Shown here: piece by piece, positions 38,464 to 63,538 of the stretch
Layout of the letters: each line of letters opens with the position of its first letter
Numbering within the stretch: the stretch's first letter is position 1
NCBI GenBank assembly: GCA_020441665.1
Contig: JAGRLT010000073.1
Coordinates: 33,254-97,253 of the forward strand
Length of the DNA: 64,000 nucleotides
From: Nitratireductor sp.
GTDB lineage: Bacteria; Pseudomonadota; Alphaproteobacteria; Rhizobiales; Rhizobiaceae
Direction of reading: 5' to 3'
Notes under the pieces: generated by a model
Seen by the model: only the letters and a program-made list of their open reading frames with translations
Databases searched by the model: none
What the model was told of the DNA's origin: nothing
Made by a program: the position numbers and the translations under genes

Positions 38464-38528
38464 CGCAGCATCTCTTCCGCTCGCCCCTCGCCGCCCACGC
38501 ATCGCCCACGCTGTCCCGGGCGGCCATG

Positions 38529-42009: not shown

Positions 42010-42044
42010 GCAAGGTCGGGGCAAGGTCGGGAGACGAGGTCGGG
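42010..42044 (+). promoter_or_regulatory. Direct repeats gcaaggtcggg x2 (11-bp period) plus a third gaggtcggg, upstream of gspD
   Basis: Read directly at 42010-42020, 42021-42031 and 42036-42044. They lie 28-62 nt before the gspD ATG. Confidence 0.4.
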
Positions 42045-42071
42045 TGCGATTGTGTTGATGCGGCAGGCAGC

Positions 42072-44147: not shown

Positions 44148-44282
44148 GCGCGATCCGGCAGCCCGGACCGGATGGGCCGGACGCGGCAAAACGGGACGAA
44201 ACTCGGCAAATGCGACAAACGCGACAAACGGGGCGGTTACAACGATTTGAGCGATTGGATAGTCTCCCTGCCGCCATGGGCC

Positions 44283-44786: not shown

Positions 44787-44796
44787 GATTTGCAAG

Positions 44797-48300: not shown

Positions 48301-48476
48301 AAATCCAGACCGGTGGCGGCTTCATGTCGTTCGACGCGCCGGTCGCCCATTTCGGCATCGGCACATCTCCGGAGGTTTCCGGCCTTTCGATCGGCTGGTC
48401 CGACGGCAGCATGACGGACATCCCCGTCAGCCTGCCGGCCAATTATCGATACCGGATCAGCCGGCTGAGCGAATGA
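45381..48476 (+). CDS. Fusion protein: N-terminal polytopic permease (ArsP/DUF318-like, CxxC) and C-terminal FG-GAP/VCBS repeats plus an ASPIC/UnbV domain (CRTAC1-like), 1031 aa
   Basis: About 360 aa of TM helices with LGVCVNCAAPIA. These are followed by repeated DxDxDG calcium-loop motifs (GDYDGDGDIDII, ADFDNDGWLDLF, ADMDQDGYLDIV, SDIDGDRIPDLF, ADFDEDGWQDVY, ADIDGDGDLDII) and a C-terminal GGGFMSFDAPVAHFGIG UnbV-type block. Confidence 0.8.
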   Translation: MYAVINRPFRFRFLFCTLLVLYLAFNFWTTSRYPSLNDKAVMSGAIQLEDPLSFEAHYEVKPEYPVWKKIGLTTLNWIDTNRQGMTFGVLFGASLLTLLGYLRRHSFKGRFANTLAGLGIGAPLGVCVNCAAPIAKAFYTGGARVETTLAAMIASPTLNVVVLTMLFSLLPFYMAVTKIALSFLVILGAVPLISMVLPKAQLQVPEAERDASALPQPMAAGIDETFPQAVYRFAHDFMMCLWFIISRTVPLMLVAGFLGAVVATLLPANLLDNASFNVAAVFATAVVGTFLPVPIGFDVVTSGAMLSAGLQPAYVMTLLFTLGIFSIYSYFVVAGAISLRAASLLACVIVVLGTIAGIAIHFYERNSTRRALEILTSFEFSLVTSAHATGIGESFYDGVIDGNHIRIVGNPLGEPASAGQADNGKAFTRVEAWKLGLDQPIEFSFAYMWPPFWEGRSIASGDYDGDGDIDIITASTRKGLYLYDNDGKGKFSRNAQDVGRFAGMPVFNAALADFDNDGWLDLFITTYQQGNYIAYNRNGRFDFANPLTVANRGDAVLTLATAIADMDQDGYLDIVLGNWAAGWYRRIPGEESRNRIVFNENGRPDGGKYSDLPGMPGETLSVLASDIDGDRIPDLFVANDFEQPDMFYFGKGGGTLEAVTRQSGRIPFTTNTTMSIKSADLHNDGSKDVYLAQIAGRSSGVSKRLRLQSLTKYCDGIERAEDLATCRRNMDIKTWYKSGNNFNPDYAGKCLELEGSDRDECKAMLIKDLAIQNSDPDICKLIPATQPLPRQYCDIHFKPSRQATAEEMDAAIPQIQQRNVLLSIADDGTFAERAVEEHLEIGGWSWDVKIADFDEDGWQDVYVVNGTWVPNEVSPSNIFLHNTAGGRFAEETEAAGLTDYLITAAATQADIDGDGDLDIITVPVNGPLIAFINNDKTNGAVTFAFDDQKANRFGVGTNLAITTAGETPLTLRREIQTGGGFMSFDAPVAHFGIGTSPEVSGLSIGWSDGSMTDIPVSLPANYRYRISRLSE

Positions 48477-48579
48477 GCGCGCGGCATGCGGCCGGCGGCC
48501 TCCCCCGCCCGATCCAATGCCAAACCGGATGCAAAGCCCCGAGCCGGCCCCTGCCCTGTCCCGTTATGAAGGTTTGAAG

Positions 48580-50133
48580 ATGCACCACCGGTTCCTGATC
48601 GCCTCCCTTGCCGCCCTGCTGGCGTTTACGCCCGCATGCTTTGCCCAGGAGACCCCGAACGGCACCGCCGCGCCGGAAGCGGCCGCCGCGACCCAGCCGA
48701 CCATGCAGAATGCCGAGGCAGCCTTCCGCGACGGCGATCTTGCCAAAGCGCGCGAAATCCTCGAGCAGCTGGCGCCCGCCGGCGATGCGCTGACCCACTT
48801 TCGCCTTGGCCGCATGTATGCGACGGGCGAAGGCGGACCGGTCGACCTCGACAAGGCCGCCGACTGGCTCCAGAAAGCCATCGACGGCGGCAATAGCGAT
48901 GCATCGGTCCTGCTCGCCCGCATCCGCATGAACTCTGCCCGCTCCGACGAGGATTTCACCGAAGTGGCCAAGCTGCTGCTGCCCGCCGCCGAAGCGGGCA
49001 ATGCCGAGGCGCAATTTTATGTCGGCCAGCTTTATCGCTCCGGCCGTGGCCTGGAAAAGAACCTCGACGCGGCCTTCGCCTGGATGAGTTCGGCCTCCCG
49101 TGCCGATTTTTCCGCCGCAACCTACGACCTGGCCAGCATGTACGACCTTGGCGAAGGCACGGCGGCAAACCCGGACAAGGCGCGCGAACTGCTCGACAAG
49201 GCCGCCGAGGAAGGCCTGCCCCAGGCCCGCATCAAGCTTGCCCGGGAATTTGCCATCGGCGAGGTGCGCGAGAAGGATCTCGCCAGGGCCATCGAATGGT
49301 ATGAGAAGCAGGCCCTCGCCGGCACCGCGCTGGCGCAGCGCGAACTGGCCCAGCTCTACCTGCGCGAAGAGGCTTTGCCGGACCGGTTCGAAAAGGCGGC
49401 CAAATGGCTGAGACAGGCCGCAGATCAGGGCGATGCCGTATCCCGCAACAATCTCGCCTATCTTTATGCCACCGGCCAGGGGGTCGAAGAGGATTTGGCG
49501 CAGGCCCGCGAACTCTATCTGAAGGCCGCCTCCGCCGGCTATATCCGTTCGCAACTGGCGGTTGGCGAAATCTACCAGAAGGGCCTCGGCGTCGAGCCGG
49601 ATCTGACCGAGGCGGCCTACTGGTATCAGGCGGCCGCCGAGACCGGCGACGAGACCGCCATGGAACAGCTCGCCGCCATCGCCATGACCTCCGATGAGGC
49701 CGCCGGTAATGTGCGGCAAGCCGAACGCTGGGTCGGCCAGCGCGCGGGCAAGGGAGATGCCGAAGCCCTCGCCTGGCTCGAGGCGCGCGCCGGCGGCAAT
49801 CCCGAGGCAGCCTTCCGGCTGGCCGAGGTGCTGCTCGCGCCGGAAGCCGGCGAACCTGCGCACACCCGCGCGGTCGACCTCCTGGGCGGCGCCGCGCAGA
49901 CCGGGCTGCCCGGGGCGCAAACCCGCCTGGCAAGCCTGTATGCCACCGGCGAAACCGTCGCCCAGGACTATGTCCAGGCCTACAAATGGGCCAATCTCGC
50001 CAGCGGCGACGGCGATGAGAACGCCGCGAAACTGCGCGACACCGTCGCCAAGCTGATGACCGCGGAACAGATCGCCGAGGCGCAGCGCCAGGTTCGCGCC
50101 TATCTGGCCGGCGAGACCGGCGGAGCCCAATGA
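48580..50133 (+). CDS. Secreted Sel1-repeat (SLR/TPR-like) protein, 517 aa
   Basis: Signal peptide MHHRFLIASLAALLAFTPACFAQ, then many A-x-W-(L/Y)-x-K/Q-A-A-x-x-G units (for example AADWLQKAIDGGN, AIEWYEKQALAG, AAKWLRQAADQGD). Confidence 0.85.
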   Translation: MHHRFLIASLAALLAFTPACFAQETPNGTAAPEAAAATQPTMQNAEAAFRDGDLAKAREILEQLAPAGDALTHFRLGRMYATGEGGPVDLDKAADWLQKAIDGGNSDASVLLARIRMNSARSDEDFTEVAKLLLPAAEAGNAEAQFYVGQLYRSGRGLEKNLDAAFAWMSSASRADFSAATYDLASMYDLGEGTAANPDKARELLDKAAEEGLPQARIKLAREFAIGEVREKDLARAIEWYEKQALAGTALAQRELAQLYLREEALPDRFEKAAKWLRQAADQGDAVSRNNLAYLYATGQGVEEDLAQARELYLKAASAGYIRSQLAVGEIYQKGLGVEPDLTEAAYWYQAAAETGDETAMEQLAAIAMTSDEAAGNVRQAERWVGQRAGKGDAEALAWLEARAGGNPEAAFRLAEVLLAPEAGEPAHTRAVDLLGGAAQTGLPGAQTRLASLYATGETVAQDYVQAYKWANLASGDGDENAAKLRDTVAKLMTAEQIAEAQRQVRAYLAGETGGAQ

Positions 50134-51455
50134 TCCGCAGGGCCGGCGCCCCCGTTCTGCTTCAGGCCGGCCTGGTTCTTGCTGGCCTGATCCTCGCCGA
50201 CAGGATCGCCGCCACATGCCCGGTCGGATTCCGGCTGCCTTCCCTCTTCGCCACCATCGCCCTTGCCCAACAGGAAAAAGCCCAACAGGAACAAGTCCAG
50301 CAAGCCGCGGCCGGTGGCACATATCTCGATCTGCTGCCGCCAGCCATGGCGCCGCTGGCGGAGGGCGCCAGGCGCGGCCAGCCGCAGGCCGCGTTCGACG
50401 TCGCCGAACGGTTCCTCAGGGGAACCGGCATCCAGCAGAACTTCCCCGCCGCCGCGCACTGGTTCCAGATCGCCGCCGCGGCCGGCCATCCCGGCGCTCA
50501 CAACGCCCTTGGCCGCCTGTATTCGGAGGGCCTGGGCGTCGAGCGCGATCCGGTCAAGGCGCGCTCCCATCTAACCATCGCCGCCGACAGCGGCGATCCG
50601 GCCTTTATCTTCGACCTTGCCCGCTTCCACGAGCTTGCCTTTGCCGAGACCGGCAAGGCGGAGGACGCCACCGCCGCGCGCGACCTCTACGCCCTTGCCG
50701 CCGACAAGGGCCATGTCGAGGCCATGGCCAATCTCGGCCAGCTTTATCTCGCCGGCATCGCCGTCGAAAAGGACATCGCCAAGGCGCGGCACTATCTTGA
50801 AAAGGCCGTCGAGGCCGGCAATGCCAAGGCGCAGAACAATCTCGGCCTGATCTATGTTCGCGGCGACGGTGTCGAGCGCAACTACGACCGCGCCGCGGAA
50901 CTGTTTCAGCTGGCGGCCCAGCAGGGCCTGCCGACCGCCATACGCAATCTTGGCGTCATGTATGAGAACGGTTTCGGCGTGAAACAGGACGACGCGATCG
51001 CCACCGAACTCTACAAGCAGGGCGCGCGCACCGGCGGCAGCAGCATTGCCAGCCTGATCGCCGAGGTCTCCTTCTTCTACGACCCCAGGCTCAAGGCCAT
51101 GCAGCAGATCAGGACCGATCCGGCCGGACTGCAGCTTGCCGCCAGCCATGGCGACCCGATCGCGACCTTCCTTCTCGCCGCGATAGTTTCTTCCCCTGAG
51201 GGCGGCGGCGATCTTAAGGAAGGCACCCGTCTGATGCGCAGGGCGGCCGATATGGGCATGCCGGCGGCGATGGCCAATCTCGGCATCCTCTATCTGCGTG
51301 GCCAGGGCGTGCCGCAGGATTACGTGCTCGGCTATGTCTGGCTCGCCCGCGCGGTCGCCGCCGGCCTCGATGATGCCATCGAACTGCGCGACGCGCTGGC
51401 AAGCCGGCTGTCGCCGGAGCAGATCGCCGAGGCGCAGACATTGGCTGCCAAATAG
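50130..51455 (+). CDS. Sel1-repeat protein, 441 aa
   Basis: Its ATG overlaps the stop of the upstream Sel1 gene (ATGA). Hydrophobic N-terminus and repeated AAHWFQIAAAAGH / ARHYLEKAVEAGN units. Confidence 0.85.
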   Translation: MIRRAGAPVLLQAGLVLAGLILADRIAATCPVGFRLPSLFATIALAQQEKAQQEQVQQAAAGGTYLDLLPPAMAPLAEGARRGQPQAAFDVAERFLRGTGIQQNFPAAAHWFQIAAAAGHPGAHNALGRLYSEGLGVERDPVKARSHLTIAADSGDPAFIFDLARFHELAFAETGKAEDATAARDLYALAADKGHVEAMANLGQLYLAGIAVEKDIAKARHYLEKAVEAGNAKAQNNLGLIYVRGDGVERNYDRAAELFQLAAQQGLPTAIRNLGVMYENGFGVKQDDAIATELYKQGARTGGSSIASLIAEVSFFYDPRLKAMQQIRTDPAGLQLAASHGDPIATFLLAAIVSSPEGGGDLKEGTRLMRRAADMGMPAAMANLGILYLRGQGVPQDYVLGYVWLARAVAAGLDDAIELRDALASRLSPEQIAEAQTLAAK

Positions 51456-51473: not shown

Positions 51474-52850
51474 CTACGCCTTTGCGAACAGGCTGCGCCA
51501 GAACGATGCCGGACGCTCCGCAACCGTTTCCGCCTCGTGCTTGAGAGCAAGATTGTTCTGTTCATCGGGATCGCCCGGACGATCGAACATCCAGGATACA
51601 TCGCCGCGTTCATTCAACACCGTTTTGAATGCCTGCGTGACGATCATCGTATCGTTCCTGAAAGCACTGTGGGCATAGGGGCGATGATGATCCCGCTCGC
51701 CGCGAACAAGCGGCATAACGGACAGCCCGTTGCCGGGAAAGGAAAGATCGCCACCCGCGGCTTCCGCCAGCGTCGGCCCGACATCCATCAATTCGATGAT
51801 CGCGTCCTGCCGGCCGCGCACGCGAGCCGCGTCCTGCGATCGGGCCGGCTTTATCACCAGAGGAATGCGAACCGCCGGATCGAGAAAGACCTGTTTGCGC
51901 AGCAGGCCGAAATCGCCATTCAGCTCGCCATGGTCGGAGGTGAGCACGATCATCGTTTCCTCATAAACCCCCTTTGCCTTCAGCACCGCGATGAGCTCCG
52001 CGATCTGATCGTCGATCAGGGTAACCGAACCGGCATAGTTGGCGCGCAGGCGGCCAATCATGTCATCGGTGAGGCCGGGATTGTGTTCATTGGGTTCGTT
52101 GATCAGCGTATCCATATGCGAATGCACCGCCGAACGCCAATTGTCCGGCCGGCGGATGGCGGGCTTCATCTTCGCCGGATCGTACAGGCTCGCATAGGGT
52201 TCGGGGGCATCGTAGGGTTCATGCGGGCCTGGAAAACTCACATGGCAGAAAAACGGCTGCTTCGACTCATAGGTTTCCAGAAATTGCTTCGCCCGCTGCG
52301 CCACGAAGACATCGTAATAGTGATCGACGCCCAGCGGCGAAGGGCGAACCATGTGCGGAACGGTTTCGAACCGCTCCTTGAAGTCGGCGCGATAGCTGTC
52401 CCACAGGCCGGCTTCGCGCCAGGTTCGGGTCAATTCGCAGTCACGAATGGCGAGTTCGCGCGGACCGCCACACTCATTTGCCGTATCGAAACCCAACTCC
52501 GCGAGCCAGGGCTGATAGTCGCTCATATTGCCCCGGGTGACGTGCAGATGGGTCTTGCCGAACAGGCTGGTATGATAACCCGCCGCGCGAATGGCCTGCA
52601 GCCAGTTCGGGCGCGCGACATCGGCCGTATAGGGCTGGTTGAACGTGATGCCGCTTTGATGCGGATAAAGGCCGGTGATAAGCGACGCCCTTGCCGGGAT
52701 GCATTCGGGAGCGTTGGTAAAACAGTTGGATGACCACAACCCTTCCCTGGCCAGAGAAGCAATCGCCGGGGTCTTGACATCGGCAGCCTCGGGCTCGACA
52801 CAATCCGCCCGGAGCTGATCGCACATGATGAAAAGAATATTGGGGGCCAT
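51474..52850 (-). CDS. Cys-type sulfatase (formylglycine-dependent family) without a signal peptide, 458 aa
   Basis: NILFIMCDQLRAD N-terminus and sulfatase signature CIPARASLITG (C-x-P-x-R...TG). The protein starts directly at the conserved core. Confidence 0.88.
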   Translation of the reverse strand: MAPNILFIMCDQLRADCVEPEAADVKTPAIASLAREGLWSSNCFTNAPECIPARASLITGLYPHQSGITFNQPYTADVARPNWLQAIRAAGYHTSLFGKTHLHVTRGNMSDYQPWLAELGFDTANECGGPRELAIRDCELTRTWREAGLWDSYRADFKERFETVPHMVRPSPLGVDHYYDVFVAQRAKQFLETYESKQPFFCHVSFPGPHEPYDAPEPYASLYDPAKMKPAIRRPDNWRSAVHSHMDTLINEPNEHNPGLTDDMIGRLRANYAGSVTLIDDQIAELIAVLKAKGVYEETMIVLTSDHGELNGDFGLLRKQVFLDPAVRIPLVIKPARSQDAARVRGRQDAIIELMDVGPTLAEAAGGDLSFPGNGLSVMPLVRGERDHHRPYAHSAFRNDTMIVTQAFKTVLNERGDVSWMFDRPGDPDEQNNLALKHEAETVAERPASFWRSLFAKA

Positions 52851-52979
52851 TGTCCTTTTGCCTGTTCGCGCTAGCTTCCCGCAATCATTGACCCTTGGCG
52901 GCCAAGTCGGGCAACATCAAAGCTTACTTGCTTCAAAGATTTCCCGGGTCAAGGCCCGCCAGTCGAAAGTCCGCCCGAC

Positions 52980-54005
52980 ATGCCAGCCGGCGCCAAATTG
53001 CCCGCATCGGATGCCCAAGCCATCTCGCCCCTGCCCATCGCTATCGGCGGGCTCGGCGGCAGCGGTACGCGCGTTCTGGCAAGCCTCGTGCGCGAGCTTC
53101 GCGTCGATATCGGTTCCTTTCTCAACAACTCGCTCGACAATCTCTGGTTTACCTTTCTTCTGATGCATCCCGACTGGCATTTTCCGGCAAAATCGCCCGA
53201 GCGGATTTCCATGGCGCTGGATCTGTTCATCCGCGCGATGACGACAGGTCTTGAAGGCACGCTGTCCGTGGCCGAGGAGACGCTCCTCTCGCACCTGGAG
53301 AACAAGACCGGTCCCACTTTTCACGGCTTCCCCACGGCTGACGTAGCATGCTCCCTGCGCGCTTCGAAAGGCCCCGAGCCGGGCGCATTTGCCGGCTGGG
53401 GCTGGAAGGAACCCAACACCCACTACATCGTCGAGCAACTCGCCAATGCCGACGGGCGTTTCGTCTATGTCCATGTCATCCGAAACGGGCTGGACATCGC
53501 CTTCAGCGGCAATCGCAATCAGCTTAGAAACTGGGGCCCGCTGTTCGCCCTGAACGTCGACGAAGCCACGCTTCAGGAGCCCCGGCTTGCCCTCGATTTC
53601 TGGCTGATGGCCAATGCCCGCACGATCGGCATCGCTGCGAGGCGCTTCGGCCAGCGCTTTGTCCTGATGGATTACTACGATCTCTGCACCAATCCCTACA
53701 ACGCCGTTGTTCAGATCGCCAGGGCCGCGAACCTGCCGATTCCGAAAAAGCTTTCCGTCAACGGCTCGGCCAGTCCGATCAAGGTCAGAACCGATCAGAT
53801 GGAAATCCACGCCTCCCAGTTCTCGGCGCAAAGCCTGGCCCGATTGGAAGACCTTGGCTATGTCAACGCAACGGAATCATCCGGCCGGCTCGTGACCCTG
53901 CCCGAACGATGCGACGCGTCCGCCCGGCTCGATGCCTGGCTGAAGCTGGCGGAGGCTACCGCGTACCGACCAGGCCCCTCACCCACTGTGCAAGAACCCG
54001 GATAG
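52980..54005 (+). CDS. Sulfotransferase-family protein, 341 aa
   Basis: PAPS 5'-phosphosulfate-binding loop-like GGLGGSGTRVLASL and a 3'-phosphate-binding motif VIRNGLDIAFS (R-x3-D-x3-S). Confidence 0.65.
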   Translation: MPAGAKLPASDAQAISPLPIAIGGLGGSGTRVLASLVRELRVDIGSFLNNSLDNLWFTFLLMHPDWHFPAKSPERISMALDLFIRAMTTGLEGTLSVAEETLLSHLENKTGPTFHGFPTADVACSLRASKGPEPGAFAGWGWKEPNTHYIVEQLANADGRFVYVHVIRNGLDIAFSGNRNQLRNWGPLFALNVDEATLQEPRLALDFWLMANARTIGIAARRFGQRFVLMDYYDLCTNPYNAVVQIARAANLPIPKKLSVNGSASPIKVRTDQMEIHASQFSAQSLARLEDLGYVNATESSGRLVTLPERCDASARLDAWLKLAEATAYRPGPSPTVQEPG

Positions 54006-54870
54006 CGTTGTTCTTCGGCGGCTCGTCATAGCCGAATTCATGAAAAGCGCTGCCTGCCGTCGCAATGATATCCGCTTCCTGCTCGTGGGTAAGCTGCGAT
54101 TTCCACTTTTCCATCGACCGTAGATCGACCGGCCGCGAACGCCTGGTGTTGCCGGGTCCGAAGCCGACATAGACCTCTTCGTGATGGGTCAGATAGTAGT
54201 GCTCCGCAATCCCGGCATGCTCGGCGATCTTCCGGCAATAGGCCGCCTTGTCCGCCACCATGTCCTCATACCGGAACATGAAGGTCGGCAATCCCTGCTC
54301 GAGGAAGCGCCGGTACATCGTGGACTTGATGCGCCAGAAAATCGTCCGCTTGACATGCTTGGGGACCAGGGGGTCTTCCAGCATCGCAACCTCGCCGGCG
54401 AACAAGGCATGGATATCGGGACGCGCGCGGATAAGTCTGACCTGCTTCTCAACCATCGGAATGCTGTCGAGAACGGCCATCGAGGCAACGACCGGCCGTG
54501 GATCGCGCACCGGAAAGACGATGGTAACGGGGATGTCGAACCCCGCCAGGGCCTTGAAATCATAAGTCAGATTGGGCGCTTTCAAGACCGCGTAACGGAC
54601 GGCCGCCGAAAACGGCCGTTCGCCGTCGGCGCCTCCCCGCAACCGTCTGTGATCGGGTTGATATTTCTCATCCGCCGCGACGATGAGCTTGTTCCACAAC
54701 CGCTGCGCCTCGCCGTCGCCCGACACATAGGCGTCGAACCACGGATAGAGGCCATCGGGTTCATCAATCAGAAAAGCATTGGGGTGCGCGCCGAGTATCT
54801 GGCCCGTAAGCGTGGTACCGCTGCGCTGGCAGCCGGCAACGACGATCAATTTTTCAAACTGTTCCAGCAT
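53956..54870 (-). CDS. Sulfotransferase-family protein, 304 aa
   Basis: VVAGCQRSGTTLTGQIL (5'-PSB loop) and FPVRDPRPVVAS (3'-PB). The start ATG at 54870 overlaps the stop of the upstream GT gene (a GTG at 54873 is also possible). Confidence 0.75.
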   Translation of the reverse strand: MLEQFEKLIVVAGCQRSGTTLTGQILGAHPNAFLIDEPDGLYPWFDAYVSGDGEAQRLWNKLIVAADEKYQPDHRRLRGGADGERPFSAAVRYAVLKAPNLTYDFKALAGFDIPVTIVFPVRDPRPVVASMAVLDSIPMVEKQVRLIRARPDIHALFAGEVAMLEDPLVPKHVKRTIFWRIKSTMYRRFLEQGLPTFMFRYEDMVADKAAYCRKIAEHAGIAEHYYLTHHEEVYVGFGPGNTRRSRPVDLRSMEKWKSQLTHEQEADIIATAGSAFHEFGYDEPPKNNAIRVLAQWVRGLVGTR

Positions 54871-55943
54871 CACAAAAGGTCGACAATTTCATCCGCAGCG
54901 CGCCCGGGCCCGTCGATCTCCGCGAGCGGCCGGGCGATTTCCCTCGCCTTAGCCGACATTTCATCGAAGGAATACCGGGAAAGTTCAGCCGCCATGTCTG
55001 ACGGATCGCCGCAAAGCCCGCAGCCCGCAGCTTGCAGAACCTCGCCCATGATCTCGTGATTGCGATGGCCGGGCAGGACGATCACCGGCAGCCCGGCGGC
55101 AAGCGCCATATAGGTCGAACCCGCGCCCCCCTGGGTGACGACCAGCCGCGAACGGGCAAGAACCGGTTCGAGGGGAAGCCAGGGATGGGCGTGATCGACG
55201 ATACCCTTGCGCAGATAGTCTCCGCCATTGCCGCCCGCAAACAGCGAGGCGCCGCATCCTGCCCATTCCTTCAATGCTTCCATGACGCCGGCGGAAAACA
55301 TGCGTTTGCCGGTGGAGCCCAGCGTCACCAGCAGCAGCCGGTCGAGTTCGCTCACCGAGGCGGGAAGATCGCCGTCCGGCGTCCAGGCGCAAGGTCCGCA
55401 GAGCCGATAGGCGGAAGGCAGTTCAGCCATGCCGCAGATCAGACCGGGCGGGTCGGCGAGCAATACCCTGTCCGCCTCGTACAATTCGAACGCGGACTGT
55501 ATGGCGGACAGGCCGCGCTGCCGCCGCCAGTCATTGACCTGGCCGCGGATCGTGCGAAACCAGTCGGTCTGCACGGTATCTGCGCCGAAACGAGCCGTGA
55601 GGAAGAAATTGGTGACGACGACGCGCGGGCAATCGGGCAGCCGCACGGCCGACATCCAGCGCAAGGGGCACAAATCCTGCACGATCGCATCATAGCCATG
55701 GCTGGCAAAGTGCTGCTCCAGGCCAGCTCCAAATTCCCCCGCCGGAAGGCTTAACGCAGCCTTGGCAACGGGCACACCGATCACGTCGTACTTTCCCTTG
55801 AGCAGCGGGAAAGCATGGCTGCCGTGATCCGGTGTGATGAAGGTGATCTTCGTTCCGCCTTCCCGCGAGAGACTTTCGGCAATGCTGAGCAGACGGCTGA
55901 CATGGCCGAGCGCCGGTCCGCAAATGAACGCTATTTTCCTCAT
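54870..55943 (-). CDS. GT1-family glycosyltransferase (MGT/UDP-glycosyltransferase-like, GT28 C-terminal type), 357 aa
   Basis: N-terminal KIAFICGPALGHVSRLLSIAESL and C-terminal VTQGGAGSTYMALAAGLPVIVLPGHRNHEIMGEVLQ nucleotide-sugar-binding region. Confidence 0.75.
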   Translation of the reverse strand: MRKIAFICGPALGHVSRLLSIAESLSREGGTKITFITPDHGSHAFPLLKGKYDVIGVPVAKAALSLPAGEFGAGLEQHFASHGYDAIVQDLCPLRWMSAVRLPDCPRVVVTNFFLTARFGADTVQTDWFRTIRGQVNDWRRQRGLSAIQSAFELYEADRVLLADPPGLICGMAELPSAYRLCGPCAWTPDGDLPASVSELDRLLLVTLGSTGKRMFSAGVMEALKEWAGCGASLFAGGNGGDYLRKGIVDHAHPWLPLEPVLARSRLVVTQGGAGSTYMALAAGLPVIVLPGHRNHEIMGEVLQAAGCGLCGDPSDMAAELSRYSFDEMSAKAREIARPLAEIDGPGRAADEIVDLL

Positions 55944-56067: not shown

Positions 56068-56110
56068 AAAACGCATTGACCCTCAATTGCGCACCGCAAC
56101 TGAGGGTCAA
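56068..56110 (-). terminator. Rho-independent terminator after fibre cassette 1
   Basis: A 10-bp perfect stem, ttgaccctca (56076-56085) with tgagggtcaa (56101-56110), and a 15-nt loop. On the minus strand it is followed by TGCGTTTTGC. It lies about 77 nt after the stop at 56187. Confidence 0.55.
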
Positions 56111-56186: not shown

Positions 56187-57110
56187 TTAGGGAAGGCAGG
56201 AAAGCAAGCCGGCGGCACTGCTCCGGATACCATTGGTGCAATTGGCCAATTGCGGAATGGTCACCGCGCCGGTCGAGCTGATCAGAAGTTCCTGAACGCC
56301 GCTGCCGTCGATGCTGACGCGGAAATCACCATTGTCGCTGACGTCCATAACCCAGACGTTCGGAGCATCGGTGTTCTCGAAGCGGATACGCGGCAATCCG
56401 TCATTGCCGGCACCGCCACGGCGGATATGCAGCGCCGCATCGGCGGTCACATCGTTGTTCGCAAGCCCCATACCGATATTGTTGTTGGCGCTGATGACGA
56501 AGGCGCCGCTGTCGGCACCCGGGATGACGCGGATCGGCAGCTGGCTGCCATTGGTCACGTCGCGCAGGAAGAAGTTTGCTTCGTTACCCGCCAGATCCCA
56601 GGTCTGGGCGGAAAATCCCGAGGACGTGTTCTGCTCCAGCCGCAGACCCGGCGTATTGCCATCGGCGGCATGCAGGCTGAGCGAGGTGTTGGGGGCGTTG
56701 GTGCCGAAACCCACCGAACCGGAACTGTCGACATAGATCGAATTGGACGGCGCGCCGGCCTCGATCGTCGTCACATACCGGCCGGAAGTCGCATCCTGGA
56801 TGGCATAATAGTTGGCACCGCCATTCTGGCTGTTGTTGACCTCGATCCGCCAGTCATTGTTGGGAAAGCTGCCGCTGTTGCTCGTATCGTCGAAATGGAT
56901 ACGCAGATTGTTTTCCTTCAGCCGGATCGTATCGGCGCCGAAATTCTCCGTACTGGTGCAATCGACGCCAACGCACAGGCTGCCCTGGACGATCACATCC
57001 TGAGTAAAGACCTGCGCCGCCGAGGCACTGCCGGCAAACGGAACGGACAGAGCGGTCAGAGCCAGCGCGCTCGCGGTCACCGCATGAAGCGAATTCATTG
57101 CTTTTTTCAT
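56187..57110 (-). CDS. Secreted tail-fibre-like repeat protein, paralogue 1, 307 aa
   Basis: Signal peptide ...PFAGSASA. Three internal repeats of about 75 aa each, ending in (V/I)G(F/M)G...LH motifs. It shares long identical runs with paralogue 2 (FGADTIRLKENNLRIHFDDTS, GGAGNDGLPRI). Confidence 0.7.
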   Translation of the reverse strand: MKKAMNSLHAVTASALALTALSVPFAGSASAAQVFTQDVIVQGSLCVGVDCTSTENFGADTIRLKENNLRIHFDDTSNSGSFPNNDWRIEVNNSQNGGANYYAIQDATSGRYVTTIEAGAPSNSIYVDSSGSVGFGTNAPNTSLSLHAADGNTPGLRLEQNTSSGFSAQTWDLAGNEANFFLRDVTNGSQLPIRVIPGADSGAFVISANNNIGMGLANNDVTADAALHIRRGGAGNDGLPRIRFENTDAPNVWVMDVSDNGDFRVSIDGSGVQELLISSTGAVTIPQLANCTNGIRSSAAGLLSCLP

Positions 57111-57125
57111 GGTTCTTCCCCTCTT

Positions 57126-57557
57126 CTATTCCTCGGACTGGCTGGCCTTGTCGGAAATCAGGCCGTTGGCGGCGTAGAACGAGCCGCTGAACACGACCCC
57201 CGCGCCTTCCGTGGTGTCCGCGCTGCTGCGTCCGTTATTGACCGGCTGCTTGAGCGCCGACTGGCCGCCGGTCGCGGCAGAAAGCTGATAATTATAGGTT
57301 CCCGCGGAGGTTCCGCCGGAGCGAATGAGATCGATCGCCACCGATCCCGAAGTGGAACTGGCCGTGGCGTAATAGCCGTCGGGCCCCGACACGCTCAGCG
57401 ACGCGGCATGATAATCCGACCCCAGATTGAACCGCACCTGCGATCCCTGCAGGGTCATCTGGTCGCCGGACAACTCGGCCGCGCAGGCCGCCGCCGACGC
57501 ACCGGCCGCGACCCCAATGCCCAGCAGGCCGGTCAGGATTTTCAGGCGCAATGTCAT
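57126..57557 (-). CDS. Small secreted protein (Ig-like/beta-rich by composition), cassette 1, 143 aa
   Basis: SD GGAGGAGG, and signal peptide MTLRLKILTGLLGIGVAAGASAAACA. It is homologous to the 142-aa protein at 58993..59421 (SLSVSGPDGYY...VAIDLIRSGGTSAGTYNYQLSAA versus KLVVTGPNRFQ...VSVDLIKAGGIDAGVYRYEVSAA). Confidence 0.65.
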   Translation of the reverse strand: MTLRLKILTGLLGIGVAAGASAAACAAELSGDQMTLQGSQVRFNLGSDYHAASLSVSGPDGYYATASSTSGSVAIDLIRSGGTSAGTYNYQLSAATGGQSALKQPVNNGRSSADTTEGAGVVFSGSFYAANGLISDKASQSEE

Positions 57558-57766
57558 GATTGCCTCCTCCCATATTGATTGCGGTCGCCCTTTGGCGCCC
57601 AAACTGATTTCCTTCATTACCACACGCGCCCCAAAATAAGAACGACAATTACACAAATTGCAGTTTTTTACCAAAGGCCGCCTTTATTGATGATTTTGGG
57701 CGTTATGCTTCTCCGAGATGATAACGCCGCGAATTCGCCACCCTCAAATCGATATACCGCAGGACA

Positions 57767-57795
57767 ACGCATACAAGTCCCGCCGCAGCGAGACT
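57767..57795 (-). terminator. Stem-loop terminator after fibre cassette 2
   Basis: A 12-bp perfect stem gtcccgccgcag / ctgcggcgggac with a 5-nt loop, about 40 nt after the stop at 57837. The downstream T-run on the minus strand is weak (TTGTATGCGTTG). Confidence 0.5.
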
Positions 57796-57836
57796 GCGGC
57801 GGGACCGATCGAAAAGCAGAAAATGCCGAATATCGC

Positions 57837-58973
57837 CTAGTTGCTGGCTTTTTCTTCCAGCACCGCCAGACGGGCCTCGAACATGACCTTCTGTTCCTTC
57901 AACTGGTTGTGCAACTGCTCGATATAGATGTGGGCATGCTCGAGTTCGTTCAGCATCCGCACCAGCTTCAGCGTCACGTCGAGCGGCTCATCCGGACGGG
58001 TCGGCCCCACCGCGGGCAGGTATTTGTTGGCCCACATCTGCGCCGCGTGATCGTCGATCGAGGGAACCGTGTAGATCGCCGGATCGAAGACCGCATCGCA
58101 CGGATCGGCGGGTGTGCAGGCACCGCCGCCGCCGGTCGTGACCAGGCCGCCGGTAATCGTCAGATTGCCGGCCGACGACAACACGAATTCCTGCTGGCCG
58201 CTGCCATCGACGCTGATTCGGAAATCGTCATTGTCGCTGGCATCCACCGTCCAGTTTTCCGAACCGTCGGTATTGTCGAACATGATCCTCGGAAGCCCGT
58301 CATTGCCGGCGCCGCCGCGACTCAGATGCAGCAAGGCCGACGGCGAAATCGTGCCCAGACCGATATGGCCGGTGCTGCCTTCGATGATGAGCGAGTTGGA
58401 CGGCGCGCCGGGGAAGACCCGCAGCGGCAGCGTGCTGCCATGGGTCGCATCCCGCAGGAAGAAGCTGGTCTCGTTGCCCGCCAGGTCCCAGGTCTGCGGC
58501 GCGAAGCCGGAAGAGCCGTCCTGTTCGAGACGCAGGCCCGGCGAATCGCCGTTGCGCGTATGAAGCTCGAGCACCGGCGTCGAGGTGTTGAAACCGACCC
58601 GGCCGCCATCGTCGACATAGAGCGCGTTGGAAACCGCGCCGGCCTCGATGGTGAAGGGAATGCGGTTGGCCGTGGCGTCCTGCACCGAGAACCGCGAAAG
58701 CCCGCCATTGGCCTGGTCGTTGACCAGGATGCGCCAGTCATTGCGCGGAAAGGAACCCGCCGTCGACGTATCGTCGAAATGGATACGCAGATTGTTTTCC
58801 TTCAACCGGATCGTGTCGGCGCCGAACCCCGGCTCGGGATTGCCGCAGTCGAAACCGACGCAAAGCGAGTTGTAGACCGTCAGATCGGCCTGGGCGGTCG
58901 CCGGCAGAAGGGTCGCGGCGCCAAGCGCGAGAACGGAAGCTGCCGCCTTCAGGCGGTACGTAGAATGTGTCAT
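57837..58973 (-). CDS. Secreted tail-fibre-like repeat protein, paralogue 2, with an extra C-terminal helical module, 378 aa
   Basis: SD GGGAGA and signal peptide ...LLPATAQA. It has the same three-repeat body as paralogue 1, plus about 90 additional C-terminal residues ending in a heptad-like helix (LNELEHAHIYIEQLHNQLKEQKVMFEARLAVLEEK). Confidence 0.7.
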   Translation of the reverse strand: MTHSTYRLKAAASVLALGAATLLPATAQADLTVYNSLCVGFDCGNPEPGFGADTIRLKENNLRIHFDDTSTAGSFPRNDWRILVNDQANGGLSRFSVQDATANRIPFTIEAGAVSNALYVDDGGRVGFNTSTPVLELHTRNGDSPGLRLEQDGSSGFAPQTWDLAGNETSFFLRDATHGSTLPLRVFPGAPSNSLIIEGSTGHIGLGTISPSALLHLSRGGAGNDGLPRIMFDNTDGSENWTVDASDNDDFRISVDGSGQQEFVLSSAGNLTITGGLVTTGGGGACTPADPCDAVFDPAIYTVPSIDDHAAQMWANKYLPAVGPTRPDEPLDVTLKLVRMLNELEHAHIYIEQLHNQLKEQKVMFEARLAVLEEKASN

Positions 58974-58992
58974 CGTTCCAATCTCCCTGACC

Positions 58993-59421
58993 CTAGTCTT
59001 CTTCCTTGGGACCCGGATCAACCTTGACGATGATCCCGTCCTTGGCGGTGAACGTGCCGTAAGCGACCCCGGTAAGGGGGCGTTTCGGATTGTCGTTCGG
59101 ACCTCGGCCATTGTTGAGGCCCGAGCGGCTCGTCCAGGTCGTCTTGGTAGAGGCCGCGCTGACCTCGTAGCGATAGACGCCGGCATCGATGCCGCCGGCC
59201 TTGATCAGGTCGACGGAAACTGTCGTGCCCTTGGAGAAGGCGTCGGTCTGGAACCGGTTGGGACCGGTCACCACCAGTTTGGCGTTGAAGTAGTTTTTGG
59301 GGACGGTGATGGTTACGCGCGAACCTTCGAGTTCCTCGCTAACCTGAATTTCGCCGGCGAGCACAGGCGCGTATACAAGGACGCACATACCTCCCGCCAA
59401 CAACAGGCTGGTCTTCCGCAT
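58993..59421 (-). CDS. Small secreted protein, cassette 2, 142 aa
   Basis: Signal peptide MRKTSLLLAGGMCVLVYAPVLAG. It is a paralogue of 57126..57557 and ends 19 nt upstream of the fibre gene. Confidence 0.65.
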   Translation of the reverse strand: MRKTSLLLAGGMCVLVYAPVLAGEIQVSEELEGSRVTITVPKNYFNAKLVVTGPNRFQTDAFSKGTTVSVDLIKAGGIDAGVYRYEVSAASTKTTWTSRSGLNNGRGPNDNPKRPLTGVAYGTFTAKDGIIVKVDPGPKEED

Positions 59422-59740: not shown

Positions 59741-62700
59741 ATGACGGAAATTTCTACTCCCCAAGCCAAGCGGAAGCGGGTCTGCCTGCTCGTGCTCGGC
59801 ATGCACAGGTCAGGTACCAGTGCGCTTACCCGCGTACTCAGCCTCAGCGGGGCAGCGCTGCCGATGAATTTGATCGGACCCGGTGAGGGCAATGAACGCG
59901 GTCACTGGGAACCCCAGAGGCTGGTCAACTTCTGTGAGGAGATTCTCGCCGAATTGGGCTCGTCCTGGCACGACTGGCGCCCTCTCGAGCTTGAAAAACT
60001 GTCCAAGTCGCGCATCGAGCAGATACAGGAGAGATTTCGCACGATTGTTGAGGAGGAATTTGCCGGGCACGACCTTTTCGTCGTCAAGGATCCCCGCCTT
60101 TGCAGGCTTTCGCAACTTTTCGTCGCCGCGCTCGAAAAGGGCGACATTGAGGTCTGCCCGGTACTGCTGGTGCGCAATCCGCTGGAAGTTTCGGCCTCGC
60201 TGAGACAGCGCAGCCGGTTATGGTCACCACACTATAGCCAGGCGCACAGCTCATTGCTATGGTTGTCCTATGTGCTTGCCGCGGAAGCGGAAACACGCGG
60301 CCTCAAACGTGCAGTGGTGACCCATGAGTCTCTGATGCTGGACTGGCGCGGAACGCTTGCCTCGATTGCGCTGAATACCGCAACGGAATTTCCTGTGAGC
60401 GCCGAACAGGCGGAAGACGAAGTGCGCTCCTTTCTGTCAGACGGTTTGTACCGGCAACGGTGGACAACCGGCGAACTGAAGCTCGACCCGGTAATGCGTG
60501 GCTGGATCAGCCAGGCCTTCGATGCGTTGTCCAAGCTGGCATCTGATCCCTCCCGCAAGGCCTCTCTGCGAAAGCTGGACAAAATTCGCGCCGAATTTGA
60601 AGGTTCGGCGCCGATGATCTGCGACTTGCTTGAAAATGCGATCACCGAATCCGTCAGGGCGGTCGAGAACATCGAGGCAAGGATGGAAATCGCCGGCCAG
60701 AGGGCCGTCAGGCGCTCAAAGACGGCCGAAACCGTCAACAGAAAGCTTAAAAGCCTGATGAGCGACCGCGAGGAGACCGTCAGCACCCTGCGCAGCAAGC
60801 TGAAGCTGATGGAACAGGAAAAAGCGGCGTTTGCGCACAAGTTCGCCGAGCTGGAAAGGGAGCTTTCGACCGCCCAAAGTGACTTCGAAGCTGAGCGCAG
60901 GAGACGCGGCGAGGCTCTCAGAGCGACTCAGTCCTACATCGACGCGGTTCGCGAGGAATTCAGGAGTTCCCGGTCGTGGCGGATCACTGCGCCGCTCAGA
61001 GCCGGCGGTCGCATGTACCGCTACCTGCTGAGGATGCTGGGGCTTTTCAGCTTCGTCCGTTCAGAACAGGGATATCTGACCAGCCTGTACAAATCGGCCC
61101 GCATTCTGCTCACGGAAGGACCGCGGGGCTTTGCCGCCAGGCTTGATGCACAGCCGAAAAAGCCGCCGGCAAGACAACCGGTTCCGCCGACCGTTGCCAG
61201 CACGGATGCAGACGTTGATCCCATCTCGTGCCTGCTGGTAACGACCCGCCACGTTGAGGGAATAGCGCAGACGATGGCGCGCATCCTGCGCCAGGAAGGG
61301 TTCAACACGCGTGTTCAGTTTGACGCCGAGGATGCGCACCGGCACGGACACGTCATCGTCCTTTGCCCGCAAATGTTCGAGCAACTTCCGCCCCGGTATA
61401 TTGCCGTTCAGATGGAGCAGTCCATCAATCCGCGCTGGTTTACCGAGCAATATTTCGAGAAGCTCAACAATTCGCAGGCCATCATTGACTATTCGATAAG
61501 GAATATCAGTTTCCTGCGCGAGAACGGCATTCCGCTTGAGAAGTTGCACTATGTGCCGCTCGATACCGACAAAGCCCTGGCCGCCACGGTCGCCAACAAC
61601 AACACGTTCGAACGGCGTGGCATCCTGTTTTATGGCGACGACAAGTGCGAACGGCGCAGGAAGATTCTCGACGCGGTCGCCAGGCAATTGCCGCAACTCA
61701 AGATCGTCAACAACCTGTTCGGCGAGGCACTGCACAAGGAGCTGATGCAGGCGGCGGTCATCTTGAACATTCACTACTACCCGGATGCGCTGCTTGAAAC
61801 GGCCCGCATCCATGAGGCCCTGTCCTTTGGCGCGCCGGTCGTCAGCGAAAGGGGATCGGATCAGGAAGAGCACGATACGCTGGAGAACATCGTGACCTTT
61901 GTCGACGCCGGGGATGTCGATGGCCTGATCAAGGCCCTTCGGCCGTTTGTCGAAAGCAGCCACCATGCCGAGAGCAGGGCAGCAGCAACCGCCGAGTTCG
62001 CCACCCGCGAGACCAACCGCTTCGAAACCTACTTTCGGCGCTTCCTGCTGTCACAACGCATGATCGGACTGGACGGCTTCGTCGAGCGCGCAAGCAATTA
62101 CCCGGTGCCGGTGCCGGCTGACCCCAGACTGTGCCTGAGCCTTCCCGAGACGCCCGACCGGCGACGGCTTTTCATCGACCAGGGACACGACGAATTTCAG
62201 GTTTGGGACGGGTTGAAGATGTCGCCCGGCTGGATGGGAGCGGCGCTCAGCTACAAGCATCTGTTCACCAGGCTGAACTCGGAAAAAGCCGGCAGAGCGG
62301 TTGTCTGCGAGGACGACGTCCTGTTCCCGCCTGATTTCGAACGGCGCTTCAAGACCGTCCTGCGCTACCTCGAAAAGACCCCCTTCGAAATCTTCTCGGG
62401 CTTTATTGCCGACGCCAATGAAAATCTTGTCATCACCAAGGTGGAGGAGTTTGAAGGCGAGCTCTTCATCCACATAGACCGGACGGTGAGCATGGTTTTC
62501 AACATCTACTCGGACACGATCATTGAGTATCTCTCGGGATGGGACATTGCCGATCTAGATGTGGAAACAAACACCATAGACCGCTATCTTGAACGTCGCA
62601 CCGGAACGAAAGCCATTCTGACCCTGCCCTATCTGGTCCAGCACCGGCCGGATGCCGCCTCGACAATCTGGGGTTTCGACAATACCGCTTACGATGAGCT

Positions 62701-62773
62701 TACCACCCAGTCGGAAATTCTGCTTGCGAGAAAAGTTGACGAGTTTCGCCGCAAACACGAAAAAGGCAATTAG
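59741..62773 (+). CDS. Multidomain enzyme, 1010 aa: N-terminal sulfotransferase, coiled coil, GT1-like (GT4-type) domain and C-terminal GT25-like domain
   Basis: VLGMHRSGTSALTRVL (5'-PSB) and LLVRNPLEVSAS (3'-PB). Heptad-rich residues about 300-400 end in SRSWRITAPLR. ETARIHEALSFGAPVVSE is an E-x7-E-type GT motif. The C-terminal VVCEDDVLFPPDFERRF is GT25-like. Domain boundaries are approximate. Confidence 0.7.
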   Translation: MTEISTPQAKRKRVCLLVLGMHRSGTSALTRVLSLSGAALPMNLIGPGEGNERGHWEPQRLVNFCEEILAELGSSWHDWRPLELEKLSKSRIEQIQERFRTIVEEEFAGHDLFVVKDPRLCRLSQLFVAALEKGDIEVCPVLLVRNPLEVSASLRQRSRLWSPHYSQAHSSLLWLSYVLAAEAETRGLKRAVVTHESLMLDWRGTLASIALNTATEFPVSAEQAEDEVRSFLSDGLYRQRWTTGELKLDPVMRGWISQAFDALSKLASDPSRKASLRKLDKIRAEFEGSAPMICDLLENAITESVRAVENIEARMEIAGQRAVRRSKTAETVNRKLKSLMSDREETVSTLRSKLKLMEQEKAAFAHKFAELERELSTAQSDFEAERRRRGEALRATQSYIDAVREEFRSSRSWRITAPLRAGGRMYRYLLRMLGLFSFVRSEQGYLTSLYKSARILLTEGPRGFAARLDAQPKKPPARQPVPPTVASTDADVDPISCLLVTTRHVEGIAQTMARILRQEGFNTRVQFDAEDAHRHGHVIVLCPQMFEQLPPRYIAVQMEQSINPRWFTEQYFEKLNNSQAIIDYSIRNISFLRENGIPLEKLHYVPLDTDKALAATVANNNTFERRGILFYGDDKCERRRKILDAVARQLPQLKIVNNLFGEALHKELMQAAVILNIHYYPDALLETARIHEALSFGAPVVSERGSDQEEHDTLENIVTFVDAGDVDGLIKALRPFVESSHHAESRAAATAEFATRETNRFETYFRRFLLSQRMIGLDGFVERASNYPVPVPADPRLCLSLPETPDRRRLFIDQGHDEFQVWDGLKMSPGWMGAALSYKHLFTRLNSEKAGRAVVCEDDVLFPPDFERRFKTVLRYLEKTPFEIFSGFIADANENLVITKVEEFEGELFIHIDRTVSMVFNIYSDTIIEYLSGWDIADLDVETNTIDRYLERRTGTKAILTLPYLVQHRPDAASTIWGFDNTAYDELTTQSEILLARKVDEFRRKHEKGN

Positions 62774-62896
62774 AGCCTTTCAGGCCCCGCCTTCCGGCAT
62801 GTTTTCCTGTTGCAACCGGGTCAATAGGGCTGATACGGAGCCGCAATCGGCGGCAAGCTGACATTTCGGGCAGAACCAGCCTATACGGGAGGTCCC

Positions 62897-63538
62897 ATGG
62901 AAATCGATTATTCACGCTATAACACGGACAAAGGTCTGCACTTCCTGAAAAACTACGAGCGCTGGTTTGCCGAATTGCGCGACAAGGAGGTCCACATCCT
63001 CGAACTGGGCATTCTGGACGGAGGATCGCTGGAGTTGTGGCGCGATTTCTTTCCGAAAGGAAAGGTCGTGGGTATCGACCTGAAAAAGTTCGAGGTCGGG
63101 AACGAGGAGCGTATCTTTACCTTTGCCGGCTCTCAGGACGATCCCGAACTGTATCGCCGCATACAACGCGAACTGAACATACCCAGGTTCGATATCATCA
63201 TTGATGACGCCTCGCACGTGGGGAACATATCATTGAATTCATTCAATATCCTATATAATGGCTATCTCAGGAACGGCGGCCTGTATGTCGTGGAAGATTG
63301 GGGCACCGGCTATTGGTCCCATTGGCCGGACGGCCATAAATACAACGCGCCAAGCGTCGAAGGAAACCGCATCCGCTCGAACGATCACGGCATGGTCGGC
63401 TTCATCAAGGCGCTGGTCGACTATGTCGCCTTCCCGGATATCGTGCGCTTCGACAGCGAGGCCGCCGGCAGTCTGGTCAAGGTCAGGGCGCTTGAAATAC
63501 AGCCCGGTCAGGTTTGCCTGACAAAGCCGTCGGCATGA
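62897..63538 (+). CDS. Class I SAM-dependent methyltransferase (CmcI/sugar O-methyltransferase-like), 213 aa
   Basis: SD GGGAGG. SAM-binding motif I ILELGILDGGSLELW, an acidic residue after beta-2 (VVGIDL), and IIIDDASH. Confidence 0.7.
   Translation: MEIDYSRYNTDKGLHFLKNYERWFAELRDKEVHILELGILDGGSLELWRDFFPKGKVVGIDLKKFEVGNEERIFTFAGSQDDPELYRRIQRELNIPRFDIIIDDASHVGNISLNSFNILYNGYLRNGGLYVVEDWGTGYWSHWPDGHKYNAPSVEGNRIRSNDHGMVGFIKALVDYVAFPDIVRFDSEAAGSLVKVRALEIQPGQVCLTKPSA

Follow-up and report, generated by a model that had tools for sequence, protein, structure and literature searches.

A probable split fibre related to mosaic adhesive trimer fibres

The two-gene cassettes lying in tandem at positions 56187-59421 of a 64,000-nucleotide stretch of Nitratireductor sp. 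DNA (contig JAGRLT010000073.1; the whole stretch is referred to as the window) probably encode two paralogous copies of a two-part surface fibre related to the MAT (mosaic adhesive trimer) fibres of Bdellovibrio and to phage tail fibres. In this reading, to which we assign a probability of roughly 0.6, the fibre is a Sec-exported and probably trimeric adhesin that is delivered by a type II secretion system (T2SS). The original prediction, made from the sequence of the window, had proposed a secreted or surface fibre or adhesin module with a dedicated partner protein, which we consider reasonable, and had left out context that bears on the mechanism, namely a complete T2SS, two Sel1-repeat proteins and an ArsP/FG-GAP/ASPIC protein that are encoded nearby and are syntenic with such cassettes in many genomes.

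The four minus-strand open reading frames (ORFs) in 56187-59421 form two small-plus-large pairs arranged head-to-tail, at the coordinates predicted earlier. Cassette A consists of smallA (58993-59421, 142 amino acids) and largeA (57837-58973, 378 amino acids), an exported-type fibre protein, and cassette B of smallB (57126-57557, 143 amino acids), a paralogue of smallA, and largeB (56187-57110, 307 amino acids), a short-type fibre protein; no additional copies of small or large genes were found within the window. All four N-termini read by eye as Sec signal peptides, with K/R followed by a hydrophobic core and then AxA. Both homologies claimed between the cassettes were recovered: the large proteins share 57% identity over 275 residues (E 6e-105), including the identical runs FGADTIRLKENNLRIHFDDTS and GGAGNDGLPRI, and the small proteins are more diverged, with 35% identity (E 3e-18).

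In largeA, the signal peptide and a Cys-loop N-cap are followed by the repeats R1 (residues 52-139), R2 (140-217) and R3 (218-282), a C-terminal domain and a coiled-coil helix. The N-cap and the three repeats are arranged in the same way in largeB, in which a conserved Cys-loop tail replaces the helical C-terminal domain. The presence of three internal repeats, about 65-90 residues long in the large proteins, was borne out by profile-profile comparison of R1 with R2 (probability 98.9%, E 1e-17) and of R1 with R3 (probability 92.8%, E 4e-7), R2 and R3 being only weakly similar when compared directly.

Single-sequence searches of Pfam, NCBIfam and the Protein Data Bank (PDB) were run with the four proteins and gave nothing significant, the only borderline match being that of largeB to RicinB_lectin_2. 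A profile built from 46 members of the large family and searched against 177,635 distinct PDB sequences gave matches confined to MAT fibre chains of Bdellovibrio, namely Bd2133 (8OND, E 3.1e-11), Bd3182 (8OJN/8ONB/8ONC, E 3.2e-5) and Bd1334 (8OML, E 6.8e-4). The alignments pass through the G-x-V-G-I-G-T-x-x-P-x-x-x-L-H-V units of the trimeric beta-helices and, judged from them, the large proteins have a repeat body homologous to the beta-helix units seen in the MAT structures. The earlier statement that no characterised family could be recognised is correct in that the fibre family has no Pfam or NCBIfam model and no name, and needs amending for the repeat body, whose MAT homologues were characterised in 2024 (PMC10769870).

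The likeness to tail fibres that had been noted from the repeat pattern is corroborated by structure comparison and by phage sequences. The AlphaFold2 (AF2) monomer model of largeA (predicted local distance difference test score, pLDDT, 73.5; predicted TM-score, pTM, 0.36) is extended and built of beta strands, five per repeat unit, with a long C-terminal helix (residues 333-377). With the model of the large protein, Foldseek returned 8OND as the top match in the PDB, followed by T4 gp34, and 26 matches at E <= 1e-3 among the viral structures of BFVD, of which those with a name are tail fibres, ICA-domain proteins and an endosialidase. With tblastn, one repeat weakly matched tail-fibre genes in the genomes of cyanopodovirus KBS-S-2A and Pelagibacter phages (E 1e-4). 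A weak match to PHROG 9942 (tail fiber; E 8e-5) was also obtained, and relatives of the large proteins carry the S74 domain described below. The low pTM, the extended shape and the long C-terminal helix of the model agree with a homotrimer but do not prove one.

Conservation is uneven along the fibre. It reaches about 0.75 in the N-cap, R1, R2 and the C-terminal domain and 0.44 in R3, whose length varies between 59 and 121 residues across the family; this pattern suggests that the conserved end serves for docking and that the variable R3 sets the specificity. Two invariant cysteine pairs, C38/C43 and C286/C292, are in agreement with folding in an oxidising compartment.

Exchangeable C-terminal modules

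Three C-terminal endings occur on the shared fibre body, two of which, the largeA type and the largeB type, are distinct non-S74 endings. The largeA-type domain has about 75 highly conserved residues, CxxxxxC...NELEHAHIYIEQL, followed by a coiled coil (consensus C-x5-C-D-x-V-F ... H-A-A-x-M-W ... L-P-A-V-G-P-T ... N-E-L-E-H-A-H-I-Y-I-E-Q-L), and its profile retrieved nothing but coiled-coil noise from the PDB and Pfam. The largeB type is a short form of about 295-300 residues with the disulfide-loop tail N-C-x-N-G-I-x-T-D-A-x-G-x-L-S-C-L-P (NCTNGIRSSAAGLLSCLP), and occurs in Roseovarius and many metagenomic genomes; downstream of largeB we found no remnant of a C-terminal domain. The third type carries Peptidase_S74 (PF13884) with its SDxxxK motif; about 22 of the 120 relatives nearest to largeB end in this way, and so do tandem-array paralogues of three loci (L059, L070 and L074; E 1e-7 to 1e-13).

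In these relatives, the S74 domain occupies the position of the largeA C-terminal domain, so that the coiled-coil-ended domain of largeA would sit where the self-cleaving Peptidase_S74 trimerisation chaperone sits in close relatives; from this position and the coiled coil, it may be a trimerisation module. Kinship of the largeA domain with the S74 chaperone was suspected from the residue pattern and from two UniRef homologues labelled 'Peptidase S74 domain-containing', but it could not be shown, and the basis for the label was not reproducible. PF13884 matched neither largeA, largeB nor any of 24 C-terminal domains, even at E <= 10, and the SDxxxK motif is absent from both sequences; the window proteins are not members of Peptidase_S74.

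Two further observations concern these endings. Within single tandem arrays of large genes, C-terminal modules are mixed, with endings of the NELEHAHIYIEQL, S74 and 'LLKKVEELTLYTLEQ' types side by side. An acidobacteriotal metagenome-assembled genome encodes fused fibre relatives (L072:7551-9296 and L072:5755-7110) with yet another ending (...FDYFVQGIRLGYLDFEVERKNDLPPLN) that has no Pfam match.

The small protein as the base of the fibre

The AF2 model of smallA is a confidently predicted eight-stranded beta-sandwich (pLDDT 82, pTM 0.70) for which Foldseek found generic FN3/Ig-like folds alone, at E ~5e-3 and weaker; therefore, no specific function of the small protein can be read from its fold. 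A profile of the small domain gave no meaningful match in the PDB, and a word-indexed search with smallA retrieved one relative only. Relatives were recovered by a local hidden Markov model (HMM), trained on the ORFs that immediately precede large genes, and by an exhaustive search of representatives. The HMM matched the N-termini of fused family members of 500-650 residues with local-search E-values between 1e-5 and 1e-19, and profile matches to fused proteins reached E 1e-39 in the library search. In the alignment, the small proteins fill exactly the stretch that follows the signal peptide and ends where the mature large protein starts. The exhaustive search returned 2,513 cluster representatives (1,445 at E <= 1e-10), about half of which are stand-alone proteins of 138-260 residues and about half N-terminal domains of proteins of 470-665 residues, and fusions of base and fibre were seen in Acidobacteriota, Gammaproteobacteria and Saprospiraceae. 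Because both the alignment and the fused homologues place it there, the small protein is, as read from these sequences, the Ig/FN3-like N-terminal base domain of the fibre, split off as a gene of its own. Of the three roles that had been offered for the partner protein, namely chaperone, base or tip, the base is the one to which the evidence points, and the small protein is not a chaperone.

For comparison of gene neighbourhoods we used 80 related loci. A split small gene precedes the large gene in about 41 of them. A frameshifted fusion, that is a pseudogene, was considered as the origin of the split and ruled out, as the split form occurs in at least 41 loci with an intergenic gap of its own and the large protein has its own signal-peptide-like N-terminus both in the window and in aligned unfused homologues. 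A single small gene may stand ahead of many large genes in a tandem array (L074), which fits a common base for interchangeable fibres. Such arrays of diverged large paralogues comprise up to 13 members (L015:1-17050, Thalassococcus profundi; 7 in L028 and 6 in L074), and the arrays of these three loci have few or no small genes. The best match to the small profile, a protein of 256 residues (P0123), consists of two tandem small domains without a fibre part.

The family is very large. More than 3,000 relatives were found for either large protein (E <= 1e-3), all of them with uninformative names, nearly always 'hypothetical protein', and a scan of one genome per species yielded at least 567 fibre loci. 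The hosts are mostly marine and belong to the Alphaproteobacteria (Rhodobacterales, Maricaulis, Litorimonas and Hoeflea/Rhizobiaceae), Gammaproteobacteria (Arenicella, Marinicellaceae and Lysobacterales), Acidobacteriota (Thermoanaerobaculia) and Saprospiraceae.

Signals and shared sequence in the cassettes

The gene signals described for the cassettes were largely as predicted. Purine-rich ribosome-binding motifs of the Shine-Dalgarno type (GGAG, AGGGAG, GGGAGGAGG and GAGGGGAAG) precede the four start codons, and the intracassette gaps measure 19 nt in cassette A and 15 nt in cassette B. Both cassette upstream regions have a GC content of 50-52% compared to 64% for the window and are therefore relatively AT-rich, as had been noted; a promoter scan remained at background level. 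A stem-loop follows each cassette on the minus strand. The hairpin at 57767-57795, 41 nt past the stop codon of largeA and read from the sequence, has the perfect 12-bp stem GTCCCGCCGCAG/CTGCGGCGGGAC with the loop TCTCG, and the one at 56076-56110, 3' of largeB, has 16-nt arms that are 94% complementary (folding energy -32 kcal/mol), so that of the two stems that had been called perfect only the first is. They are the probable terminators of cassettes A and B, respectively. Neither was called by a consensus terminator scan because both lack a U-tract.

The stretch of about 60 nt that had been reported as nearly identical in the two fibre genes was found at 56883-56942 and 58767-58826, with two mismatches among its 60 bases (58 identical). 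The motif that it encodes is the best conserved one in the family. Eighteen of its 21 codons are identical, compared to 56% elsewhere in largeA and largeB (binomial p ~0.005, before correction for picking the best window); gene conversion between the two genes, one of the explanations that had been offered, is possible from these figures but not demonstrated.

Linkage to a type II secretion system

The window contains a complete T2SS, with GspE, GspF, pseudopilins, GspD, a prepilin peptidase and GspG, at 34672-45255. The genes of this set lie on both strands and were assigned by Pfam: GspF (35591-36817) and GspE (36814-38580) on the minus strand, and GspD (41850-44147), the prepilin peptidase (44172-44786) and GspG (44659-45255) on the plus strand, in addition to one or more minor pseudopilins. 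GspD and GspG also scored above the equivalog cut-offs of NCBIfam, with 477 and 121 bits, respectively. On the plus strand there follow, again by Pfam, a membrane protein of 1031 residues with an ArsP_1 permease domain, FG-GAP repeats and a UnbV/ASPIC domain (45381-48476) and two adjacent Sel1-repeat proteins of 538 and 441 residues (48517-51455). The T2SS, the Sel1 pair and the ArsP/FG-GAP/ASPIC gene are located 5-20 kb from the cassettes. Between GspE and GspD, at 38448-41760, there are three ORFs of 401, 283 and 406 residues with overlapping calls and no Pfam or NCBIfam match, which may, from their position, be diverged components of the GspL/M/C type.

The same genes recur next to fibre genes elsewhere. 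At least 24 of the 80 loci have T2SS genes next to the cassette, as do Salipiger abyssi and L084. The Sel1 pair is present in 29 of the 80 loci, usually directly upstream of the small gene, and in other Alphaproteobacteria it is the conserved upstream neighbour of the small-plus-large pair. Homologues of the ArsP/FG-GAP/ASPIC protein, the most widely conserved neighbour of the fibre, were found within 8-10 kb of fibre genes in 36-41 of the 80 loci, a linkage that spans Alpha- and Gammaproteobacteria, Acidobacteriota and Saprospiraceae. Synteny of the cassette with the T2SS, the two Sel1 genes and the ArsP/FG-GAP/ASPIC gene was seen in 13 loci of Rhodobacterales, 9 loci of Maricaulis, Salipiger abyssi and L084, and T2SS and cassette remain linked across three or more different gene orders. 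In Salipiger abyssi, the T2SS genes C-M-L-K-J-I-H-G, the prepilin peptidase, two Sel1 genes, the small and the large gene form one uninterrupted block that continues with a sulfotransferase, a 222-residue protein and the ArsP/FG-GAP/ASPIC gene, and the order in Maricaulis and L084 is GspD, GspK-like, ArsP/FG-GAP/ASPIC, Sel1, Sel1, small and large. In a further locus (L085:11532-15905), an S74-type fused fibre gene is followed by genes for a 913-residue Big_3_5 protein and a 535-residue FG-GAP/ASPIC protein without an ArsP domain.

Genes for sulfation and glycosylation form a second group of neighbours. Between the Sel1 genes and the cassettes of the window, at 51474-55943, Pfam assigned a sulfatase, two sulfotransferases and an EryCIII-like (GT1) glycosyltransferase. 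On the other side of the cassettes, at 59741-63538, there are a 1010-residue protein with a sulfotransferase-like P-loop and glycosyltransferase-like regions and a methyltransferase-like gene. The stretch around the cassettes that includes both regions has a GC content of 59% compared to 65%. Sulfotransferase and glycosyltransferase homologues lie next to the fibre genes of about 12 of the 80 loci, as well as in Salipiger (L083), and their adjacency recurs in other bacterial classes; in Pseudomarimonas (L082), where both genes directly follow a fused fibre gene, they are 33% and 30% identical to the proteins of the window. This hints at a sulfated-glycan modification of the fibre or of its ligand.

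A model of export and its alternatives

The findings can be combined in the following model of the favoured T2SS-delivered fibre. The large protein consists of a Cys-loop N-cap, three beta-rich repeats of the type that forms an intertwined trimeric beta-helix in MAT fibres, and a C-terminal module. Going by their sequences, the small and the large protein would cross the inner membrane via Sec. In the periplasm, the large protein is expected, by homology, to fold, trimerise and form its disulfide loops, whereupon the small protein would dock on the highly conserved N-terminal part of the fibre, as the fusions suggest. If conserved synteny, the only pointer here, is a guide, the neighbouring T2SS would then move the complex across the outer membrane, to be held at the surface or released, and by analogy the variable R3 and the C-terminal end would bind a ligand, probably a glycan. 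The two Sel1 proteins and the ArsP/FG-GAP/ASPIC protein probably aid assembly, export or anchoring. The two features looked for in T2SS substrates, a signal-peptide-like N-terminus (by eye) and a T2SS in the same genome, are both present.

We further propose, tentatively and with more doubt than conviction, that the T2SS, the Sel1 pair, the ArsP/FG-GAP/ASPIC protein and the small and large proteins together constitute an undescribed fibre-display system, widespread in marine Alphaproteobacteria, in which the T2SS exports interchangeable MAT-like fibres and mounts them on a common split base. Sulfated glycans, produced by way of the neighbouring sulfotransferase and glycosyltransferase genes, would in this proposal be attached to the fibres or to their ligand. 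Literature searches that linked T2SS, Sel1, FG-GAP, Roseobacter or S74 turned up no account of such a system.

Several points weigh against the T2SS-delivered fibre. The link to the T2SS is one of synteny alone, mostly within few alphaproteobacterial clades; in the window itself the cassettes are inverted relative to the T2SS block and 5 kb away from the Sel1 genes. There are also isolated cassettes with housekeeping genes on either side (L081), and T2SS genes were not found within 8 kb of the acidobacterial loci. As for the proteins, the four in the window match no Pfam or NCBIfam model, their signal peptides were judged by eye only, and the C-terminal domain of largeA has no sequence match to Peptidase_S74. 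The pTM of the AF2 monomer is low, and the structural matches have TM-scores of only ~0.2; such TM-scores are to be expected when a monomer model of an intertwined fibre is set against other fibres.

The alternative that survives best, although we consider it unlikely, is the following: the proteins would be real fibres that reach the surface or are released by another route than the neighbouring T2SS, or that act in the periplasm together with the FG-GAP/ArsP and Sel1 proteins in the handling of sulfated polysaccharides or in another envelope process, the adjacency of the T2SS being inherited synteny. The cassettes of L081 and of Acidobacteriota without nearby T2SS genes speak for it, as does the fact that the most widespread neighbour is the FG-GAP/ASPIC protein and not the T2SS, with sulfotransferase and glycosyltransferase genes as further recurrent neighbours. 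It is countered by the linkage to the T2SS having been kept through at least three gene orders and by the block of Salipiger abyssi, in which the T2SS, the prepilin peptidase, the Sel1 pair, the small, large and FG-GAP genes are found together without interruption.

The borderline Pfam match of largeB raises another alternative, namely that the large proteins are monomeric secreted beta-trefoil lectins of the ricin-B type and that the small protein is unrelated to them and merely co-secreted. With 25.5 bits, largeB falls just below the gathering cut-off of RicinB_lectin_2 (25.6 bits), its precomputed Pfam entry lists PF14200, and three internal repeats would suit such a fold. The match is, however, a single stretch of 41 residues, and that of largeA has an E-value of 0.12. 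Beta-trefoil repeats are about 40 residues long, so that those of the large proteins are too long, and membership in PF14200 was rejected on these grounds. In addition, the family profile picks out the trimeric beta-helix fibres of the MAT type but not a single lectin, the S74 trimerisation chaperone occurs in relatives, the AF2 model is extended and ends in a long helix, and many lineages have fibres with the small domain fused to them, all of which makes a lectin of this kind highly improbable.

That the cassettes are instead a tail-fibre remnant of a prophage, tailocin or gene-transfer agent and not a cellular system is barely credible: the fold, the weak sequence similarity to phage tail fibres and the lower GC content of the cassette region (59% compared to 65% for the rest of the window) point that way, but all four N-termini are signal-peptide-like whereas virion proteins need no signal peptide, no phage gene stood out among those examined next to the cassettes, either here, in agreement with the original prediction, or in the other contexts described, the conserved neighbour clusters of the 80 related loci are T2SS, Sel1, FG-GAP/ArsP and sulfotransferase genes without a phage-like family, and thousands of family members share a conserved cellular synteny.

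Relation to known systems and significance

The closest known system is the MAT fibre family of Bdellovibrio bacteriovorus (Bd2133, Bd3182, Bd1334 and Bd2439; PDB 8OND, 8ONC and 8OML; PMC10769870). Both families have beta-helix units bearing the G-x-V/I-G-x-G-T-x-x-P-x-x-x-L-H-V motif, and a beta-rich N-terminal domain of about 120-130 residues behind the signal peptide may be a further common trait, its candidate counterpart here being the separate small protein or the fused form in relatives; in both, members are divided between Peptidase_S74 endings and other C-terminal modules (PMC10769870), and there are many paralogues per genome. They differ in size, with about 300-380 residues and three repeats here compared to roughly 900-1150 residues in MAT proteins, and in the N-terminal domain, which is a separate gene here. 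Unlike in MAT fibres, the C-terminal modules here are the NELEHAHIYIEQL domain or a short Cys-loop tail, and the hosts are mostly free-living marine lineages that are not known as predators. A linkage to T2SS, Sel1 and ArsP/FG-GAP/ASPIC genes was not found by a term search of PMC10769870, in which 'type II' is absent.

Phage tail fibres and tailspikes that end in an intramolecular chaperone (S74/ICA, such as endosialidases) and T4 gp34 belong to the same fold class, and the likeness extends to the weak one-repeat similarity to fibres of cyanopodovirus and Pelagibacter phages and to the S74 domain of close relatives. Unlike these, the proteins of the window are cellular, of the Sec-exported type and without a virion context, and largeA and largeB have neither an S74 domain nor SDxxxK. 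A functional analogue, and a precedent for a T2SS-dependent, surface-retained trimeric adhesin, is Lcl of Legionella pneumophila, which is exported by Sec, depends on the T2SS, is retained at the surface and has an N-terminal anchoring region and a C-terminal glycan-binding domain for sulfated glycosaminoglycans (PMC11162425). Lcl has no sequence or fold relationship to the fibres described here, being a collagen triple helix and not a beta-helix, and its T2SS dependence is experimental, whereas we infer that of the window fibres.

Compared to what has been described, the compact three-repeat form, the split base gene, the two unnamed C-terminal modules, the marine hosts mostly not known as predators and the linkage to T2SS, Sel1, FG-GAP/ASPIC and sulfotransferase genes are new. 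Tail-fibre-like cellular proteins were shown to be adhesins only in 2024, in the predator Bdellovibrio (PMC10769870), and a compact relative of these fibres now appears to be very common in marine bacteria that are mostly not known as predators. A base that is either split off or fused, C-terminal modules that can be exchanged among three types and arrays with as many as 13 paralogues suggest a modular build by which specificity is diversified, for which the linked T2SS, Sel1, FG-GAP/ASPIC and sulfotransferase genes are candidates for the machinery of export, anchoring and modification. If the proposed fibre-display system is real, it would also hint at the way in which MAT-type fibres get to the cell surface and are fixed there, a question left open by the work on Bdellovibrio. 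The fibres may bear on attachment, aggregation and the association with algae or particles in ecologically important marine groups.

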